A DNA stretch of 50,418 nt from Clostridia bacterium (GTDB taxonomy: Bacteria; Bacillota; Clostridia; Oscillospirales; CAG-272): assembly GCA_017507905.1 (NCBI GenBank), contig JAFWAA010000051.1, forward strand, positions 1-50,418, in the 5' to 3' direction. The notes under the pieces are model-generated. The model ran no database searches, was not told the origin of the DNA, and saw nothing but the letters and a program-made list of their open reading frames with translations. Positions 3,031 through 32,768 of the stretch are shown one piece after another. The translations under genes and the position numbers were made by a program. Numbering within the stretch: position 1 is the stretch's first letter; the number at the start of each line of letters is the position of its first letter.

Positions 3031-3059
3031 TTGCAATTTGAAAAAAAGTATGCTATAAT
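3031..3059 (+). promoter_or_regulatory. sigmaA-type promoter of tRNA-Glu
   Basis: TTGCAA, 17-nt spacer, TATAAT with TG extension; A/T-rich UP-like region upstream. Confidence 0.8.
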
Positions 3060-3078: not shown

Positions 3079-3153
3079 GGCCCGTTGGTCAAGCGGTCAA
3101 GACGCTAGCCTCTCACGCTGGAAACATGGGTTCGATTCCCGTACGGGTCACCA
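3079..3153 (+). tRNA. tRNA-Glu (anticodon CUC)
   Basis: GGCCCGT...ACGGGTC acceptor stem, anticodon loop CT-CTC-AC, GGTTCGATTCC T-arm, encoded CCA. Confidence 0.95.
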
Positions 3154-3192
3154 AAAAAGAAACATCCGAACACCGTTCGGATGTTTCTTTTT
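3154..3192 (+). terminator. Intrinsic terminator after tRNA-Glu
   Basis: AAAAAGAAACATCCGAAC-acc-GTTCGGATGTTTCTTTTT. Confidence 0.85.
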
Positions 3193-3374
3193 ATCCAAGC
3201 CGACAGGCTTGGCATGGAATCACGCGTCAGCGTGCATGGAATCGCCGCAGGCGTATGGCATCACCGCAGGTGTATTTCTCTGTCGGCTTGATTCCATACG
3301 CGACTTCGTCGCAATTCCATACCGCGGCGAGCCGCGGATTCCATACACGCCTTCGGCGTGATTGGGACGCGGAA
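3192..3374 (+). repeat. tRNA-associated seven-hairpin structured element, copy A (ncRNA or ssDNA structure)
   Basis: Seven short hairpins separated by three YATGG(A/C)AT and three ATTCCATA linkers; both ends identical to the copy at 32452-32655. Confidence 0.85.
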
Positions 3375-3385
3375 AGGAGAAGAAG

Positions 3386-3739
3386 ATGGCAAAGAATTTG
3401 TTGCTTGAATATTCCGAACAATTAGCTTGTGAAATTGCAGCGCTTTGCAACGAGCACAAAATAGACTCCAATACCGTATATCAAATCAAAAAATCCTCAT
3501 CAAGTGTTTTCGCCAACATTTCCGAAGCTCAATATCCTCAAAGCCTCGCAGATATGCTATCCAAATTTGAAATCGCACGAAAGGAATGTGCAGAGACCGA
3601 AAGCTGGCTCAAATTAATTTTCTCTTCCGGAAGTATTGACGAAAGCACCTTTAGGCGGCATCGCAATCTCTGTGGAAGAATACGCAGAATGCTGACAGCA
3701 TCGTGCATAACGATCGAAAGCAAAATAAAGCAAGGCTGA
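3386..3739 (+). CDS. Four-helix-bundle protein (23S rRNA intervening-sequence protein / Avd-like fold)
   Basis: AAGGAG RBS. Motif QIKKSSSSVFANISEA...SLADMLSKFEIARKECAETESWL matches the family pattern QxxRSxxSxxANIxE...FxxKxxIAxKExxETxxWL. Confidence 0.85.
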   Translation: MAKNLLLEYSEQLACEIAALCNEHKIDSNTVYQIKKSSSSVFANISEAQYPQSLADMLSKFEIARKECAETESWLKLIFSSGSIDESTFRRHRNLCGRIRRMLTASCITIESKIKQG

Positions 3740-3755
3740 AAAGCCTTGCTTTTTT
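3727..3755 (+). terminator. Intrinsic terminator overlapping the four-helix-bundle stop codon
   Basis: AAAGCAAGGCT-gaaa-AGCCTTGCTTTTTT. Confidence 0.75.
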
Positions 3756-3772
3756 CATTGGTTCCCTTTCCC

Positions 3773-4006
3773 AACGGCGAAATTCCCGTAGGATACTTCC
3801 CTACCGCACGTCTTGCGACGTGCGGTTTCTTTTTTTGCCGATTCCGCGCGCGGAATCGGAGAAGCGTCTGCTTGCAGACGCTTGGGTTCGCATACCCCGC
3901 CCGAAGATCGGAAAGCTCGCTTTCCAGGCGCAGGGCGAGGGTATATTCGCTAACGGCGAAATTCCCGTAGGGCACTTCCCTGCCGCACGTCGCAAGACGT
4001 GCGGTT
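3773..4006 (+). repeat. Two 55-bp direct repeats (3773-3827, 3952-4006) ending in a CCGCACGTC-N4-GACGTGCGG hairpin
   Basis: AACGGCGAAATTCCCGTAGG..ACTTCCCT.CCGCACGTC....GACGTGCGGTT occurs twice; a third partial copy lies at 11378-11443. Confidence 0.85.
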
Positions 4007-4033
4007 GATCGCGCAGATGATTGCGCATTGATT

Positions 4034-7000
4034 TTAGAAAAGCCTTTTCCTTCTGCCGATGGCCGCAAGGACAGCCAGAACGCCGCATCCTGTCAGCGAA
4101 ACTCCTGCCATGGAGCACGAAACCGTGGTGAGGGACTTGAGCTCGTCGGTCTTTTCCTCAAGCTCTGTGTTCTTTTCCGCAAGCTCGCCGTTCTTCTCCT
4201 CCAGCGCCGCCTTGATTTCATCAAGATCCTTCTGAATTGCCCTGATCGCTCCGTCGAGAGCCGCATACGCTTCCTCGATCTTTGCGGTCATAGCCGCCTT
4301 GTCTTTCGCATCTGCCGCTTCAAGAGCAGCCTTTGCCGCATCAAGTGCCTTATTCAGATTGATGATCTTACCGTCAAGGGCTGTGTCGCCGTCGGCGATC
4401 GCCTTACCAAGCTCTGCCTTTGCATCGTCGAGATTCTTCTGAACGGTCTTGATCGCTCCATCGAGAGCCGCATCTGCCGCCTCGATCTTTGCGATCAGCT
4501 CTGCTTTAAGCGCTTCGTCTGCCGCACCGTATGCGGAGATCGCATTTTCCAGCGCCTTGCCAAGATCGGCGATCTTGCCGTCAAGCTTCGTATCGCCATC
4601 TGCTATCGCCTGCTCGAGCTCTGCCTTTGCATCGTCGAGATTCTTCTGAACCTCTGCGATCTTTGTATGGAGTGCGCTCTCTGCCTCGGTGATCTTACCG
4701 TCGAGGGTCTCGTCACCTGCGGTAGCCGCCGCCTTTGCCGCCTCGATAGCCTTGTTCAGAGCGTCGATCGCCTCCGTAAGTGCGTTCGCATTGTTAAGGT
4801 CTGCTGTCTTGAGCTCCTCAACAGCCTTGTTGAGATTTGCCTGGACCTCTGCTACTTTACCCTCGAGTGCCTTGTCAGCCTCGTCGATCTTTGCGTCAAG
4901 CTCGTTCTTGAGAGCGGTGTCGGAGGTGGTAGAAAATGCCCTTGCATCCTCGATCGCCTTATTCAGCGCTGTGATAGCGTCCTCAAGCGCCTTTGCGTCA
5001 GCCGCGTCAACAGCCTTCAATTCCTCGATCGCCTGTTCGATCTTACCGATAGCCTTTTCCGCATCGGTAAGTCTTGCGTCAAGAGCCGCGATCAGCTCGT
5101 TTGCCTTCTTGATCTCTTCATCAAGCACAGCCTTCAAAGCCGCATCCTGCGTGTCAGCATACGCTTCCGCCTCCTTGATGAGAGCCTTCAGCACGTCAAC
5201 CGCCTTGTTCAGCGCATCGGTATTGGACTTGTCAGCCGCTTCAAGCTCGCCTACTGCCTTGTTGAGGGCCGCGGTGTAAGCGTCGGTCACTTCCTGCTTT
5301 GCCGCCGCGATGGCATCCTCAACCGCCTTGTCGGTGGCGTAGGTGCTGTCAAGTGCGTCGATAAGGTCTGTGACCTTCTTGATCTCTGCCGCAAGCTCGT
5401 CGGGATCGATCTGCGCCGCGATCTTTGCTTCAAGCTCGCCTACCGCCTTGTTGAGGGCGTCGGTAAGCTTGGTTTCCAGTGTATCAAGCGCCGTGTCGAG
5501 AGCTTCTATCGCCTTTGTCAGCGCGGAATCCTTGTTCGTCAGATCGGTAAGCTTCTCAAGTGCTTCGATAGCCTTGACCGCCTCCGCGATAGCGTCAGCG
5601 TTTGCCTTTACGTTGTTCACGTCAGCCGCGCCGACCTTTTTTTCAAGCTTTGTCACACGCTCGGTGAGCTTTTCGATCAGCTCGTTGAGCTTTTCGTCAG
5701 CCGCCTTGTAAGCGTCCTCAAGAGCGGTTATATCGCCTTCAGCCGCCTCAATTGCCTCCTTTGCCTCTGCCATCGCTGTCTCAAGAGCCGTTACTCGGTC
5801 AACAAGCACGCCGATATCGTCGGTATCCAGTCCCGCAATAGCGTTTTCCAGCTTTGCGAGAAGGTCGGAGGAGCTGGTAGCCTTCAGCTCGATGGGGGTA
5901 TCCGAAGTGAATTCAAAGTACTTGCCATCCATCGTTTGAACATATACCCACAGGTAAACAGAGTCTCCCGGATCAACGTTAAGATTGAGCACGTCTGTGT
6001 AATTGTCCTGCTTTGTATGTCCCGAGCTGTCATTTATGCTGTAGAGGAAAGCGTATTGATATGTGCTGTATTCGCTTGTGATCTCCTCACCCGTGTCGGC
6101 GCGGTATATCTTCACCGCAAGGGTAAGGTCGTCGCCCGGAACGATCCACTCCGGAGCAACGATCGCTGCGTAGATGGGTGCTTGGACGATCTCGTAGTCC
6201 AGCGTATCGGTATCGCCGTAATTGCCTATGCCGGTGATCGTTGCTGTGTACGTTTTAGCAGGGATAAAATCACTGCTGTCCCAGCTGATTTCGTAGTCCA
6301 CGCCCTCGGTGAGGACCTTGTCGCCGTCCTTTACGGTAACGGTGGGCACGTGAGACTCGCCGTCGTAAACGGGAGGTACGGACTTATCGTGAGAGATCTG
6401 AAGCTCACCCACGGGTTTGGGGGTTATGGTAATGATATCGTGAAATTCGCCTGTAAAGTTGATGCCTGCTGCGGTTAAAAGCACCTTCTTTTCGCCTGCA
6501 TTTGTGAAATCCCATGTGCTGAAGGAATCTATGTATTCATAATATAACTTGAGCTCGAGATCGATCCTGCCGTCATCGTCAAGGTCAAAGCCCACCTTGA
6601 GGTTGGGGGTCTTTGGTGTACCGTCGTAGACTGCGGTTTTTCCGGTATAATAATCACCGTACTCTACCATAAAGCTGTCCGATCCAAAGTCCAGAGGACT
6701 GATTGTGACGGTATACGCAAAGGTCTCGGGCAGGTCGTTGTGGTTACTGTCGCCCACTACCTTGTAATAGACATCATACTCACCTGCATCCTTCTTCGTT
6801 TCCATGTAGGAGAGCCACTCGCCGTCGTTTACCTTATACATTACGGTTCCGTCATTTGTGCTTCCGATCATATCGTAGAGCGCCTGCTCGGTACCGTTGT
6901 AGAAGATAGTTGTGTTATTGATCACGGGTGCGATGACCGCAGCAGCCCCCTTTTTGATGGTCCATGTGACTTCCTCAGGCGTCAGATCGGGAGCTTCCTC

Positions 7001-10000
7001 ATCGTTCCTTCTGATCTCGGTGCTGAACCTGACTTCTAAGCCCTGTTCGCCTGCGCTCTTCTTATCGCCGGTATATTCAATATAGTAATATTTGTCATTG
7101 TTGAGATCATACGTGCCATTGCCGGTCTTTATGGCGACGGTAACGGTAGGTACCTGTTCACCGCCGTTGTAGGTGAATTCGGTCTCGCTCTGCGTAATCG
7201 AAAGCTTGCCTATGATGACCTCGCTGTCGTGGAGGAGCTTGCTTGCGCTACTGATATTCTCGTGAGCAAAGGTCTTTACAAGGGAATCTGCATCAGGCTC
7301 ATTTACCATTACGATCTGATCAAGATTCGAGCCGATTTCGCATCCCGCGCCTACGGTGATGACCGCATCTGTATTTCCATCTTCGTCAGCTCGACGGTCC
7401 ACGTATATGGTGTCGGTAAGGTCTCTGTCTATATGAAGTGTTCCCTTGCTGTTAACGAAGGTGACGGAGGCTACGCTGTTATCAAAGTCGACGAATGTAA
7501 GCTCGCAGTATCCCGCAGAAGCATTTCCCTCGGATATGTATATACCCGTTTCGCCGCCCACGGTCAATTTGTTCGCGCCGGTGTCGACGACCGTTTTGCC
7601 CACGAGACTCAAGCGTCCGTTGACAAAGATGGAAGCGTTTTGCGAAGCCTCGGTTTTTATGACGGATACGTTTTCTTCGTGGAGATTCACCACCACAACG
7701 TTAGCGTCCTCTTCGACGATCAGCGCAATAAAATCGGAGCTTACGATATCGTATCCGTTAAGATCGAGGCGGAAATGGGGGAGGTCTCCGCTTATGGTCA
7801 GGGTATCGTTAAGGTCTGTAAGAAGGGTGACCACGGGATGAAGCACTTGAGCGGATATGCCTCCATTGACAAGGCTAACGATCCGATCAAAGGCATCCTC
7901 CACCTTGAAGTAGAGCTCTGTCGCCCCCTCGGCATCAGCGTCGCCGCTTGTGATGTAGTCAAGCTTTGCCTCTGCCTGCGCACCGCAAGCAAGACACTTG
8001 CCGTTCGCGTCAAAGTGTTCCGACGCAATAACGTCCATATCGTGAGACACAGTCTTTTCGCTGTTGGAGTAGATCCAAGTACCGTCACATTCGAGCCGGT
8101 TGTAAACCTGATTTGTTTCTGTTCTGAATACGGGAAGTGCGTCCACGGTCTCGCCGTTGTCAACGTTCTGACCGAAAGCGTCACCCAGAAGGTGCGCAAC
8201 CTCGCCGCTTGCAAACTGTGCGGAGGTCTTGGCGGTGGTAACCTCCGCCACATCCTCAGTTGTGTTGCCCAGTCCTGCGTTGCCGATGCCGTTCTGGGGA
8301 GCACCATAGCCGTCCTCGGCACAGTCGCTCAGATAGTAGCAGTTCTGCACGATGCCGTCATTACTTCCAACCACGCCGCCGACAAATTCGTTGCCGCTGA
8401 CAGAACCGGTATTGTAGCAGTTCTGTACGGTGCCGCTGTAGTTCTCTCCAACCACGCCGCCGACATTATTCATGCCGATGACGGTGCCTTGGTTGTAGCA
8501 GTTCTCTACGGTGCCAAGGTTATATCCAACCACGCCGCCGACATAATAATTTCCGTTAAAATAGGAATCGATCACTCCTACGTTCTGCACCTTGCCGTTC
8601 GTGCCTACGTAGCCGAACAGACCCACGTAGTCTACGGCGCTATCATCGAAATACAAGCCGCTTACGGTCTTGCCGTTTCCGTCGAAGACGCCGGTGTATC
8701 CGTTCGAGTCATTACCGATGGGAGTCCACAGTCTGAAGCCCGAGGGATCGGGGAAGGTTTTTGCCATTTCGGTAAGGACGCCCTCGTTGACTACGATATC
8801 TTTGGTCAGAATGGCGTCCGCACTTGTATTCTGCGCCGTGCCGTCGGTCAACGTACCGTTCACCAGTGCCGCAAACCAATACAGCTTGCCTGCGTTGTCG
8901 ATCTCGTAGTAGCCGTCGCCGTCCGAGTCGGTTGCGGGCTGATATAGACCTTCTTCGGCGCACTCGGCGCAGAAGCCGTTGCTTGCTTCGGTGAAGGTGT
9001 GGGGCTTCGTCTTATCTTGAAGAGCCGCGTCGTTTGTGTATGCTACCGTTGTGCCGTCGCACCCGATGCACGGATAGACTTTGTTTGTAGCGGTTATCTT
9101 TACCGGAAGTTCGTCTACGGTCTCACCGTTGTCAAGGCTCTGACCGAAAACACCGTTCGACAGGTACGCAACCTCGCCGCTTGCAAACTGTGCGGAGGTC
9201 TTGGCGGTGGTAACATCCGCCACATCCTCAGTTGTGCTGCCCTGTGTTTCGTTGCCGATGCCAAATTGAATTGTACCTGCGCCGTCCTCGGCACAGCCGC
9301 TCAGATAGTAGCAGTTCTGCACGTTGTCGTTATTACTTCCAACCACGCCGCCGACATATTCGCTGCCGCTGACAGAACCGGTATTGTAACAGTGCTGCAC
9401 GGCGCTGCTGATCATGTTACGTCCGACCACGCCGCCGACATATTCGCTGCCGCTGACAGAACCGGTATTGTAGCAACGCAGCACGGTGCCGCCGTCATTC
9501 GTTCCAACCACGCCGCCCACATAGCTCACACCGCTTACGGTAACGTTGCTGTGGCAGTCGAGTACATAGGAGTTGCTTGCGAGATATCCCACGACGCCGC
9601 CTGCGGATCCGTTCCCACCGCTTACAGAGGAGTATATCGCTCCGCTTACGTGCAAATTTTGGATAAAATTATAGCCCAGGCCCAGGTCGCCGGGATTATA
9701 TTGGACATACCCGAAAAGTCCGACGTATTTGAGCTCTTGATTGGGAGATGCAGAGCTGCCGATGGTAAGGCCCTTGACGGTATAGCCTGCGCCGTCAAAG
9801 ATGCCGCTGAATACGTTATGCGAACCGTCGATACCGATGGGGATCCACGGTTTTCCCGAAAGATCGATATCCTTCGAGAGCTTGATGAATTTGCCCGAAA
9901 AAGTACTTGTCGTTGCCGTTGAGTCATTGATGCCTGTGAGCTCGGTTGCGTTGCCGTCATATCGGTTCACCAGCGCCGCAAGTGCCGCAAGCTGTGCCGA

Positions 10001-10240
10001 GGTAGAGATCTCGTAGGGGCTATCCTTCGCTCCGGTCTTTCCACCATTGGTAGACGCGTTAAACGGCGAGAAGTCGGCGTAGGTGTACGTGTTCGTGTCC
10101 GGAACGTACTCTCCCCAGGTTCCCGGAGCAGCCTTTTCCGCCGCGCTTGCGCACAGCGAGAACGCGCCGAAAACGGTGACGATCATCATGACCGAGAGCA
10201 AAAGCCCGGTTATTTTCCTCTTGTTGTTTGTTTTTTTCAT
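4034..10240 (-). CDS. 2068-aa cell-surface fibrillar/adhesin-like protein (signal peptide, two GLUG-repeat domains, beta-sandwich repeats, long coiled coil, C-terminal membrane anchor)
   Basis: GGAGG RBS; signal peptide ending ASA; repeated YVGGVVG..N...V..CYNTG GLUG motifs; YDG..PTVTVK repeats; ~550-aa A/E/K/L heptad region; hydrophobic C-terminus followed by RRKRLF. Confidence 0.85.
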   Translation of the reverse strand: MKKTNNKRKITGLLLSVMMIVTVFGAFSLCASAAEKAAPGTWGEYVPDTNTYTYADFSPFNASTNGGKTGAKDSPYEISTSAQLAALAALVNRYDGNATELTGINDSTATTSTFSGKFIKLSKDIDLSGKPWIPIGIDGSHNVFSGIFDGAGYTVKGLTIGSSASPNQELKYVGLFGYVQYNPGDLGLGYNFIQNLHVSGAIYSSVSGGNGSAGGVVGYLASNSYVLDCHSNVTVSGVSYVGGVVGTNDGGTVLRCYNTGSVSGSEYVGGVVGRNMISSAVQHCYNTGSVSGSEYVGGVVGSNNDNVQNCYYLSGCAEDGAGTIQFGIGNETQGSTTEDVADVTTAKTSAQFASGEVAYLSNGVFGQSLDNGETVDELPVKITATNKVYPCIGCDGTTVAYTNDAALQDKTKPHTFTEASNGFCAECAEEGLYQPATDSDGDGYYEIDNAGKLYWFAALVNGTLTDGTAQNTSADAILTKDIVVNEGVLTEMAKTFPDPSGFRLWTPIGNDSNGYTGVFDGNGKTVSGLYFDDSAVDYVGLFGYVGTNGKVQNVGVIDSYFNGNYYVGGVVGYNLGTVENCYNQGTVIGMNNVGGVVGENYSGTVQNCYNTGSVSGNEFVGGVVGSNDGIVQNCYYLSDCAEDGYGAPQNGIGNAGLGNTTEDVAEVTTAKTSAQFASGEVAHLLGDAFGQNVDNGETVDALPVFRTETNQVYNRLECDGTWIYSNSEKTVSHDMDVIASEHFDANGKCLACGAQAEAKLDYITSGDADAEGATELYFKVEDAFDRIVSLVNGGISAQVLHPVVTLLTDLNDTLTISGDLPHFRLDLNGYDIVSSDFIALIVEEDANVVVVNLHEENVSVIKTEASQNASIFVNGRLSLVGKTVVDTGANKLTVGGETGIYISEGNASAGYCELTFVDFDNSVASVTFVNSKGTLHIDRDLTDTIYVDRRADEDGNTDAVITVGAGCEIGSNLDQIVMVNEPDADSLVKTFAHENISSASKLLHDSEVIIGKLSITQSETEFTYNGGEQVPTVTVAIKTGNGTYDLNNDKYYYIEYTGDKKSAGEQGLEVRFSTEIRRNDEEAPDLTPEEVTWTIKKGAAAVIAPVINNTTIFYNGTEQALYDMIGSTNDGTVMYKVNDGEWLSYMETKKDAGEYDVYYKVVGDSNHNDLPETFAYTVTISPLDFGSDSFMVEYGDYYTGKTAVYDGTPKTPNLKVGFDLDDDGRIDLELKLYYEYIDSFSTWDFTNAGEKKVLLTAAGINFTGEFHDIITITPKPVGELQISHDKSVPPVYDGESHVPTVTVKDGDKVLTEGVDYEISWDSSDFIPAKTYTATITGIGNYGDTDTLDYEIVQAPIYAAIVAPEWIVPGDDLTLAVKIYRADTGEEITSEYSTYQYAFLYSINDSSGHTKQDNYTDVLNLNVDPGDSVYLWVYVQTMDGKYFEFTSDTPIELKATSSSDLLAKLENAIAGLDTDDIGVLVDRVTALETAMAEAKEAIEAAEGDITALEDAYKAADEKLNELIEKLTERVTKLEKKVGAADVNNVKANADAIAEAVKAIEALEKLTDLTNKDSALTKAIEALDTALDTLETKLTDALNKAVGELEAKIAAQIDPDELAAEIKKVTDLIDALDSTYATDKAVEDAIAAAKQEVTDAYTAALNKAVGELEAADKSNTDALNKAVDVLKALIKEAEAYADTQDAALKAVLDEEIKKANELIAALDARLTDAEKAIGKIEQAIEELKAVDAADAKALEDAITALNKAIEDARAFSTTSDTALKNELDAKIDEADKALEGKVAEVQANLNKAVEELKTADLNNANALTEAIDALNKAIEAAKAAATAGDETLDGKITEAESALHTKIAEVQKNLDDAKAELEQAIADGDTKLDGKIADLGKALENAISAYGAADEALKAELIAKIEAADAALDGAIKTVQKNLDDAKAELGKAIADGDTALDGKIINLNKALDAAKAALEAADAKDKAAMTAKIEEAYAALDGAIRAIQKDLDEIKAALEEKNGELAEKNTELEEKTDELKSLTTVSCSMAGVSLTGCGVLAVLAAIGRRKRLF

Positions 10241-32451: not shown

Positions 32452-32655
32452 TTCCGCGTCCCAATCACGCCGAAGGCGTGTATATCATCCTGTTCCAAAG
32501 GAACGGCATATCATCAATGCGAAGCATTGTATATCATCAAGCCGCAGGGAAAATGCACGCTGGCGCGTGATGAGATACAAGGGCGGCTCGCCGCCCTTGA
32601 TGATATACACCGCACTTCGCGCGGTGATGATATGCCAAGCCTGTCGGCTTGGATA
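32452..32655 (-). repeat. tRNA-associated seven-hairpin structured element, copy B
   Basis: Same ends and architecture as 3192-3374, with linkers YATATCAT/TATCTCAT x3 and ATGATATR x3. Confidence 0.85.
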
Positions 32656-32691: not shown

Positions 32692-32768
32692 TGGCCTACC
32701 CGAAAGGATTCGAACCTTCGACCTTCAGAGTCGGAGTCTGACGCGCTATCCAGCTGTGCCACGGGTAG
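32692..32768 (-). tRNA. tRNA-Arg (anticodon CCG)
   Basis: CTACCCG...CGGGTAG acceptor stem, anticodon loop CT-CCG-AC, GGTTCGAATCC, encoded CCA; 77 nt. Confidence 0.95.

Follow-up and report, generated by a model that had tools for sequence, protein, structure and literature searches.

The REP/BIME elements of enterobacteria are multi-copy, intergenic elements located behind genes, in which palindromes and short linker motifs are arranged in mosaic order and with inverted halves. The attC sites of integrons, which are found before or after gene cassettes, are folded single strands in the form of a single imperfect hairpin, and their structure is conserved rather than their sequence. The tRNA-linked repeats (TLR) of E. 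coli are located behind tRNA or rRNA genes past the first terminator, some of them being transcribed by read-through and processed to small RNAs; they are defined by an 18–19-bp copy of the upstream tRNA 3' end, which is located at the 3' end of the repeat (PMC8144298). Intervening sequences of the 23S rRNA that encode S23p (PMC4990558) are inserts in a stable-RNA gene; they are structured and apparently selfish. Gut-1 (RF01706) has been an orphan motif in Rfam since 2010; the main text of the original description lists it among the likely non-coding RNAs, with sequences from the human gut as its only source, and gives no function (Weinberg et al. 2010, PMC2864571).

The element described here is located in a stretch of 50,418 nucleotides of a Clostridia bacterium (GCA_017507905.1, contig JAFWAA010000051.1, positions 1 to 50,418 of the forward strand), which is referred to as the window. 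The genome under study (G000) comprises 1.61 Mb on 63 contigs and is 92% complete. It and all other genomes compared are draft metagenome-assembled genomes; the samples of relatives are draws, in which kin are not independent, and the loci were collected via the element or the partner gene, never via the tRNAs.

Architecture of the element behind tRNA-Glu

The tRNA-Glu gene (anticodon CTC; 3079–3153, forward strand; ARAGORN; Rfam tRNA 61.1 bits) is preceded by a promoter at 3031–3059 on the same strand (TTGCAA-17-TATAAT, promoter scan). Right after its CCA end begins an intrinsic terminator (3154–3192, forward strand), an 18-bp perfect hairpin with arms at 3154–3171 and 3175–3192 (100%) and with an A-run and a T-run on either side. 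The element, designated copy A, spans 3195–3374 on the forward strand and consists of seven near-perfect GC-rich hairpins with an AT-rich linker word between them. Hairpin 1 (3195–3212) has a 7-bp stem and a 4-nt loop. The left comb (3213–3261) comprises the linker CATGGAAT (3213–3220), hairpin 2 (3221–3234), a second CATGGAAT (3235–3242), hairpin 3 (3243–3253), and the variant linker TATGGCAT (3254–3261). It is followed by hairpin 4 (3262–3272, assigned from the hairpin marking), which forms the apex of the ladder described below, and by a centre segment (3280–3290), which is the exact reverse complement of 3196–3206 in the 5' arm and loop of hairpin 1 (11 nt, 100%). The right comb (3291–3360) contains the linker ATTCCATA (3291–3298), hairpin 5 (3299–3313), a second linker (3314–3321), hairpin 6 (3322–3337), a third linker (3338–3345), and hairpin 7 (3346–3360); a repeat search returned ATTCCATA in three copies with a spacing of 23 and 24. 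The last section (3361–3385) is a tail, which is shared by alignment with a second copy up to 3374, and the RBS of the next gene; the promoter scan detected no promoter-like site in this section.

The sequence string given in the original prediction is identical to the window letter for letter, and the layout it proposed was borne out. The start had been placed at 3192; hairpin 1 begins at 3195, since 3192–3194 reads TAT and is the end of the terminator T-run. The three left and three right 8-nt linkers are complementary as proposed, but each pair matches at seven of eight positions and the third left linker at one fewer: the core ATGGAAT (3214–3220, 3236–3242) is opposed by its reverse complement ATTCCAT (3291–3297, 3314–3320, 3338–3344), and the third left core reads ATGGCAT (3255–3261), with one further mismatch. 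The complement between centre and first hairpin is exact, but is 11 nt long and not 10. In the window, ATGGAAT occurs 10 times versus 5.75 expected and is thus not over-represented; its clustering and arrangement are unusual.

The fold of 3154–3390 is more stable than that of shuffled sequences (z = −6.85; 0 of 200 shuffles fold equally well). With RNA parameters, the minimum free energy (MFE) is −85.1 kcal/mol, compared to −65.2 kcal/mol for the nested ladder and −53.8 kcal/mol for the hairpins alone. The ladder is thus 20 kcal/mol less stable than the predicted optimum, but 11 kcal/mol more stable than the hairpins alone. A peptide reading of the ladder (ORF 3209–3361) was rejected because indels in the loops and unequal lengths of the cassettes distinguish the copies.

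Further copies in the genome

A second copy with the same plan (copy B; 32466–32652, reverse strand) is located behind tRNA-Arg (CCG; 32692–32768, reverse strand), which has its own terminator at about 32691–32655. In the alignment, copies A and B agree exactly in their first and last hairpins and in the tail. All six linkers are swapped for another complementary pair, ATATCAT/ATGATAT, and hairpins 2 to 6 are different palindromes. The left linkers of copy B are (C/T)ATATCAT (twice) and TATCTCAT, the right ones ATGATATA (twice) and ATGATATG; an extra tail hairpin is found at about 32461–32442.

A genome-wide scan for a word occurring at least twice and followed at least twice by its reverse complement gave 37 matches versus one in the shuffled genome. 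The list includes false matches to tandem or coding repeats (C17, C25:8291, C62), which were dropped by name from later counts; the genome contains roughly 35–40 elements. By inspection, at least seven linker classes occur in this one genome, each of them self-complementary. At least eight of the 29 tRNA genes carry an element behind them, and seven further tRNA genes are too near to a contig end for a call. Several contig ends join inside the elements, which would account for the breaks that the assemblies of these genomes show at tRNA genes. A BLAST search with copy B gave matches in 23 of 41 genomes, and a swap of cassettes between copies was found at the orthologous tRNA-Arg loci of G000 and its relative G017.

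Several variant forms were observed. Comb-only arrays (G000 C45:5646–5713, C57:42444–42511, C57:73589–73658, C9:37695–37762) consist of three to five direct GTGATAT linkers with tiny hairpins; they have no reverse-complement half, and some begin right after a stop codon. In elements of the copy B class (G000 C27:32577–32630; L004; L013), the loop of hairpin 1 carries an insertion of ~50 nt, and the RNA gene upstream of the C27 element has a tRNA-like end, yet received no call from ARAGORN or Rfam. Ladders of the AGTGATAT class (G000 C32:45–300, locus L041; C40, C39:619, C7:423, C57:573, C17:37677) are followed by a consensus promoter and then by a conserved leader of ~70 nt, for which no Rfam match at the gathering score was obtained in the two copies scanned (C32 and C40). 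At the C32 locus, a small cysteine-rich ORF follows the leader.

Relationship to Gut-1 RNA

The element had not been recognised as a named family, a match to a described Rfam or REP family being the outcome that would speak against it. Copies A and B indeed gave no match to Gut-1 or any other Rfam family, neither at the gathering score nor at E ≤ 10. At E ≤ 0.01, however, RF01706 has 28 matches on sibling elements of this genome, five of them above its gathering score of 50 bits (50.5–69.6 bits) and 23 at 28.9–49.3 bits. Through these siblings and through high-scoring Gut-1 members with the same architecture and setting, a connection to a described family is in part established. Since the Gut-1 family is already known, the element is not categorically new.

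The RF01706 model has 77 positions and consists of three local hairpins with the linker GUGAAAU between them; it therefore describes the left comb only. Copies A and B match the layout of the model consensus (at least three GC hairpins and a repeated AU-rich linker of ~7 nt), but use other linker words. Gut-1 matches of 85–91 bits in other genomes show the complete arrangement: the tRNA ending in CCA is followed by the terminator (0–1 nt between them), the first hairpin begins after AAAT, and GTGAAAT (three times, with hairpins), a centre, and ATTTCAC (three or four times, with hairpins) follow. The centre in these matches is the reverse complement of the flank and the 5' arm of the first hairpin. 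The presence of the right half was evaluated in the 200 nt downstream of the 30 best-per-genome Gut-1 matches, a set in which a right half was not presupposed and which includes three matches truncated at a contig end. Two or more reverse-complement linker cores were detected downstream in 22 of 30, upstream in none of 30, and direct copies of the core were detected downstream in none of 30. Canonical Gut-1 elements (L054–L063, L245–L247) additionally have a conserved tail of ~100 nt beyond the right comb, with the T-loop-like word GTTCGAA and a small AT hairpin.

Copy A thus appears to be a divergent, full-length member of the Gut-1 family of hairpin-comb elements. These data indicate that the 77 nt annotated as Gut-1 cover only one half of a unit of roughly 180 nt, which has linkers complementary over a long range and a competing pairing, is attached to tRNA terminators, and has a PF05635 gene as a companion. 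The main text of PMC2864571 does not mention a right half, a pairing of hairpin 1 with the centre, a tRNA link, or a PF05635 link. In the literature covered, no publication was found that describes for Gut-1 a right half, an association with tRNAs, or one with PF05635; the supplement of PMC2864571 (Additional file 1) may bear on these points. Judged by this literature and by the main text of the 2010 description, what appears to be new is a right half complementary to the left one, the competing pairing of hairpin 1 with the centre, the tRNA-terminator attachment, the many linker classes escaping the Rfam model, and the PF05635 partnership, with the reservation that some of them may already be contained in that supplement.

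Comparison with other described elements

Like REP/BIME elements, the ladder elements are a multi-copy intergenic mosaic of palindromes and linkers with inverted halves. In REP/BIME, however, the palindrome is conserved and the linkers vary, whereas each ladder element keeps to one linker word and its hairpins vary by slot and copy. The Y1 (RAYT) transposase profile PF01797 had no match in G000 (92% complete), and a REP/BIME system with RAYT was rejected on this ground and because the palindrome is not the conserved repeat. The inverted repeat of copy A (hairpin 1 versus centre) is internal and not terminal as in a MITE, and no filled/empty pair was found by which the ends could be set.

Resemblance to attC sites lies in the conservation of structure over sequence and in the folded single strand. 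Unlike attC, the ladder has multiple hairpins, no integrase is located next to the element, and there is no cassette array. Matches to the tyrosine-recombinase profile PF00589, which is not specific for IntI, were found only on contigs C21 and C6 and none on the contig of the window, and an integron was rejected for the lack of such a match on this contig and of a cassette array. The HUH/RAYT or recombinase neighbour that had been envisaged did not materialize: neither an HUH/RAYT gene nor a reverse transcriptase was found in the genome, and no tyrosine recombinase was found on the contig of the window. The tyrosine-recombinase match on C21 (17099–17890) is located about 175 nt from a partial ladder of the copy B class; its distance to the tmRNA gene is about 1.5 kb. 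A diversity-generating retroelement (DGR; Avd, RT, and TR/VR) was rejected as well, since the reverse transcriptase profile PF00078 had no match in G000.

The ladder shares with TLR (PMC8144298) the position behind a tRNA after its terminator. A TLR was rejected because copy A contains no 18–19-bp copy of the tRNA 3' end, the best match being 11 nt at 82%. The copy A module resembles the 23S rRNA intervening sequences in encoding a PF05635 protein, but it is located behind a tRNA and not in a 23S rRNA helix, and it carries a ladder instead of one long stem. No rRNA match was obtained with Rfam within the window.

Covariation of the pairings

Three rungs and the hairpin-1/centre helix were scored in an alignment of 15 copies belonging to two linker classes. 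Of the 420 cells, 95.2% are paired, and changes on both sides occurred in 11 of 28 pairs. None of 500 shuffles reached the observed value, and slid controls were paired to 12–57%. One left linker per element shows an uncompensated A-to-C change. The pairing between the first hairpin and the centre covaries too, with at least four variants; an exact complement of at least 9 nt between the two regions was detected in 43 of 61 elements, compared to 5 of 1220 shuffled centres. By eye, the loop of hairpin 1 and the centre have changed together between copy A and its close relatives. Among 201 unique inter-linker segments, 111 contain a perfect stem of at least 5 bp versus 113 of 4020 shuffles, and in the comparison with the relative L161, also by eye, six of the seven hairpins have kept their stems unaltered, and five loops differ. 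These data show that a single-strand fold is kept by selection, in agreement with the functional conserved fold of the original prediction.

The strand or nucleic acid in which the fold acts was addressed by mismatches and loops. Nine interior mismatches were counted in 628 stem pairs, five of them G.T versus one A.C, counts that are too few to serve as a strand test. Loops of 3 nt account for 62 of 104 loops, and no strand bias was found in the loops as a whole (left comb, 13 G..A versus 18 T..C; right comb, 27 versus 19). In L166 and L173, the right linkers are decayed.

The PF05635 partner gene

Downstream of copy A, a gene at 3386–3739 (forward strand) encodes a four-helix-bundle protein of 117 amino acids (Pfam 23S_rRNA_IVP, PF05635, 3e-18; NCBIfam TIGR02436, 8.2e-20); its terminator is located at 3727–3752 on the same strand. 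The structure PDB 2RLD matches the PF05635 family profile at 2.4e-38. We take the protein to be a relative of Avd, the nucleic-acid-binding protein of DGRs. PADLOC found nothing for it. In comparison with the two closest relatives (L160 and L161), dN/dS amounts to 0.064 and 0.077 (dS 0.85 and 0.74), which indicates from the coding sequences that the protein is under purifying selection. Between the tRNA-Glu terminator and the start codon of this gene, the promoter scan detected no promoter-like site.

The genome contains three PF05635 genes, all located behind a ladder (four matches, two of which are the halves of a gene split between contigs). In the best 30 PF05635 loci of the order, a strict ladder ends 51–95 nt before the Pfam match in 12 of 30, and the six top scorers have none. 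With a profile built from the ladder-linked proteins, 80 loci were collected, 70 of which have at least 350 nt of upstream sequence. A strict ladder is located upstream, with a constant short spacing to the gene, in 37 of these 70, and in 15 of the 37 a co-oriented tRNA is also found just before the ladder. A loose detector fired in 69 of 72 loci compared to 29 of 74 and 16 of 66 control windows; since it fires in 24–39% of control windows, the contrast alone counts. By our own count in 121 related genomes, 48 contain both the gene and Gut-1, 10 the gene only, eight Gut-1 only, and 55 neither.

In the lineage of the copy A protein, the module was found behind the tRNAs for Glu, Thr, Cys, Leu, Arg, Gln, Val, Asn, and Ser, with the linkers ATGGAAT/ATTCCAT or ATGTAAT/ATTACAT. 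The element and the PF05635 gene constitute a conserved module, in which the element directly precedes the gene and which is located behind many different tRNAs. The capture of cargo, as it had been proposed, applies in so far as a gene regularly follows the element, but this gene belongs to one family only (PF05635) and the modules do not carry varied cassettes. At the locus L249 (G135:C9:9400–10200), the ladder is followed by an internally deleted remnant of a PF05635 gene, in which the N- and C-terminal ends are fused. PF05635 (S23p/Avd-like) proteins are unexplained outside DGRs, and a candidate for a defined nucleic-acid partner would make their function testable.

Position relative to tRNA genes and distribution

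Among 121 distinct strict ladders, 68 could be oriented via the hairpin-1/centre relation. A tRNA ending within 130 nt was found for 35 of the 68, and in all 35 the tRNA is located upstream and co-oriented, the ladder following closely on its terminator (14 tRNA identities), as the proposed link to tRNA 3' ends implies. No tRNA was found downstream of any of the 68 or in the opposite orientation, and the other 33 are without a tRNA nearby. Other copies are located behind the terminators of protein genes or behind a family-specific long hairpin. In some classes, hairpin 1 is itself the terminator, and the last hairpin is frequently adjoined or overlapped by a consensus promoter.

In other species of the genus, 17 tRNA-Glu(CTC) loci were inspected, and all of them are without the element. 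The tRNA-Glu adjoins rpoB only in G000 and G017, and the contig of G017 stops at the tRNA. Neither a filled/empty site pair that would set the boundaries of an insertion nor a target-site duplication was found among G017 and the 17 other loci, the latter not being syntenic.

In the host's order, 68 of 151 sampled genomes contain Gut-1 matches; 51 of these genomes exceed the cut-off, and a single genome has as many as 29 scored matches. In the rest of the phylum, matches were detected in two of 150 sampled genomes. Gut-1 is thus very abundant in one order of gut Clostridia. The related loci are assigned in their records to uncultured gut Clostridia of ruminants and other animals.

Possible mode of action

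The explanation preferred here, to which we assign a probability of roughly 45%, is that of a full-length Gut-1 module serving as a read-through RNA leader and platform for the PF05635 protein, with solo remnants and with a shuffling of cassettes driven by the linkers. The unit would extend from the terminator after the tRNA CCA via hairpin 1, three units of linker and GC hairpin, and the centre to three units of reverse-complement linker and GC hairpin. In a single strand, the left and right linkers could zip into 7-bp rungs, resulting in a ladder; in the alternative pairing, the centre would open hairpin 1. The element is presumably transcribed by read-through of the tRNA terminator and would then fold as RNA, acting both as a leader and as a binding platform of the PF05635 protein, a binding that is purely conjectural. 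The module would move from one tRNA locus to another; solo copies may be remnants of modules after loss of the gene, as the deleted gene at L249 suggests, and the identical linkers might drive template switching or gene conversion and thereby shuffle the cassettes. An action as RNA would be in accordance with the invariant orientation to transcription and with the lack of another promoter for the gene behind copy A. Here, the tRNA promoter is the only promoter-like site, so that the selected gene is reached through the terminator and the ladder. Against this explanation, little transcription is expected at a position behind a strong terminator. In four metatranscriptomes, of which assembled contigs only were used, coverage of the bins with ladder and gene was low to absent, a result that speaks neither for nor against transcription. 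In several modules, a separate promoter is located between the ladder and the gene; the role as a leader can therefore not be universal. Furthermore, near-perfect stems and unbiased loops fit DNA palindromes as well as RNA, and the ladder lying above the MFE, the decayed right linkers of L166 and L173, and the comb-only arrays also count against the preferred explanation.

The same palindromes, with 3-nt loops in 62 of 104 and without strand bias, lend themselves to a selfish repeat acting at the DNA level in the manner of REP/BIME, MITE, or attC, whose ladder would form in single-stranded DNA during replication or transfer and serve copying or insertion behind terminator hairpins, the transcript being incidental. 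The roughly 35–40 copies in 1.6 Mb, the occurrence of one family behind different tRNAs in different genomes, the shuffled cassettes and chimeras, the spacer position behind the terminator, and the breaking of contigs at the elements would all be expected from such a repeat. We nevertheless regard it as rather unlikely: the 92%-complete genome encodes no Y1/RAYT transposase and no reverse transcriptase, its two tyrosine-recombinase matches are not on the contig of the window, and neither a target-site duplication nor an empty-site pair was found. In addition, the stems are conserved at a dS of about 0.8, the orientation to transcription is invariant (35 of 35), and copy A is tightly linked to a selected gene that has no promoter of its own. 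A doubtful combination of mobility and gene link is a minimal mobile module made up of terminator, ladder, and PF05635 gene, which would home to the 3' flanks of stable-RNA genes behind intrinsic terminators via the folded single strand, with the four-helix-bundle protein as the only dedicated factor and solo ladders as non-autonomous derivatives. If true, it would tie together the PF05635 genes in 23S rRNA intervening sequences, cas loci, and DGRs. That the element instead benefits the host as an accessory of the tRNA gene seems quite improbable. In this role it would back up the terminator, insulate the next promoter from the highly transcribed tRNA gene with respect to transcription or supercoiling, or offer a platform on which the tRNA precursor is processed at its 3' end. 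It invariably separates a tRNA terminator from the following unit, consensus promoters are often found at the last hairpin, and hairpin 1 is the terminator in some classes, but only eight of 29 tRNA genes carry it, all 17 tRNA-Glu(CTC) loci in other species of the genus do without it, and other copies follow protein genes; the complementarity of the linkers and the PF05635 link would be left unexplained. An array of three direct and three inverted double-stranded DNA sites bound by an oligomeric protein is hardly credible. The regular spacing (19–24 bp in copy A) and the use of the same word for all six linkers within an element are compatible with such an array, but at least seven words in one genome would require as many proteins, the same word occurs in either orientation to the tRNA depending on the class (L079 versus the copy B class), the spacing varies with the hairpin length, and complementarity is the sole conserved property.

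Neighbouring sequences in the window

Past the PF05635 gene, a second, different repeat was observed (3757–4010), in which a direct repeat of ~55 nt is located at about 3770–3826 and 3951–4006. The stretch between these two copies, at about 3885–3950, resembles the sequence that other members of the genus have behind tRNA-Glu(CTC) (L150, L152, L155–L159); in L155, the element following tRNA-Glu(CTC) lies between two copies of the tRNA terminator. On the reverse strand, 4034–10240 contains an ORF of 2068 amino acids. Its product has an N-terminus resembling a signal sequence, repeated units of the VGGVVG type, and a long coiled region rich in alanine and glutamate, which ends in a membrane anchor.
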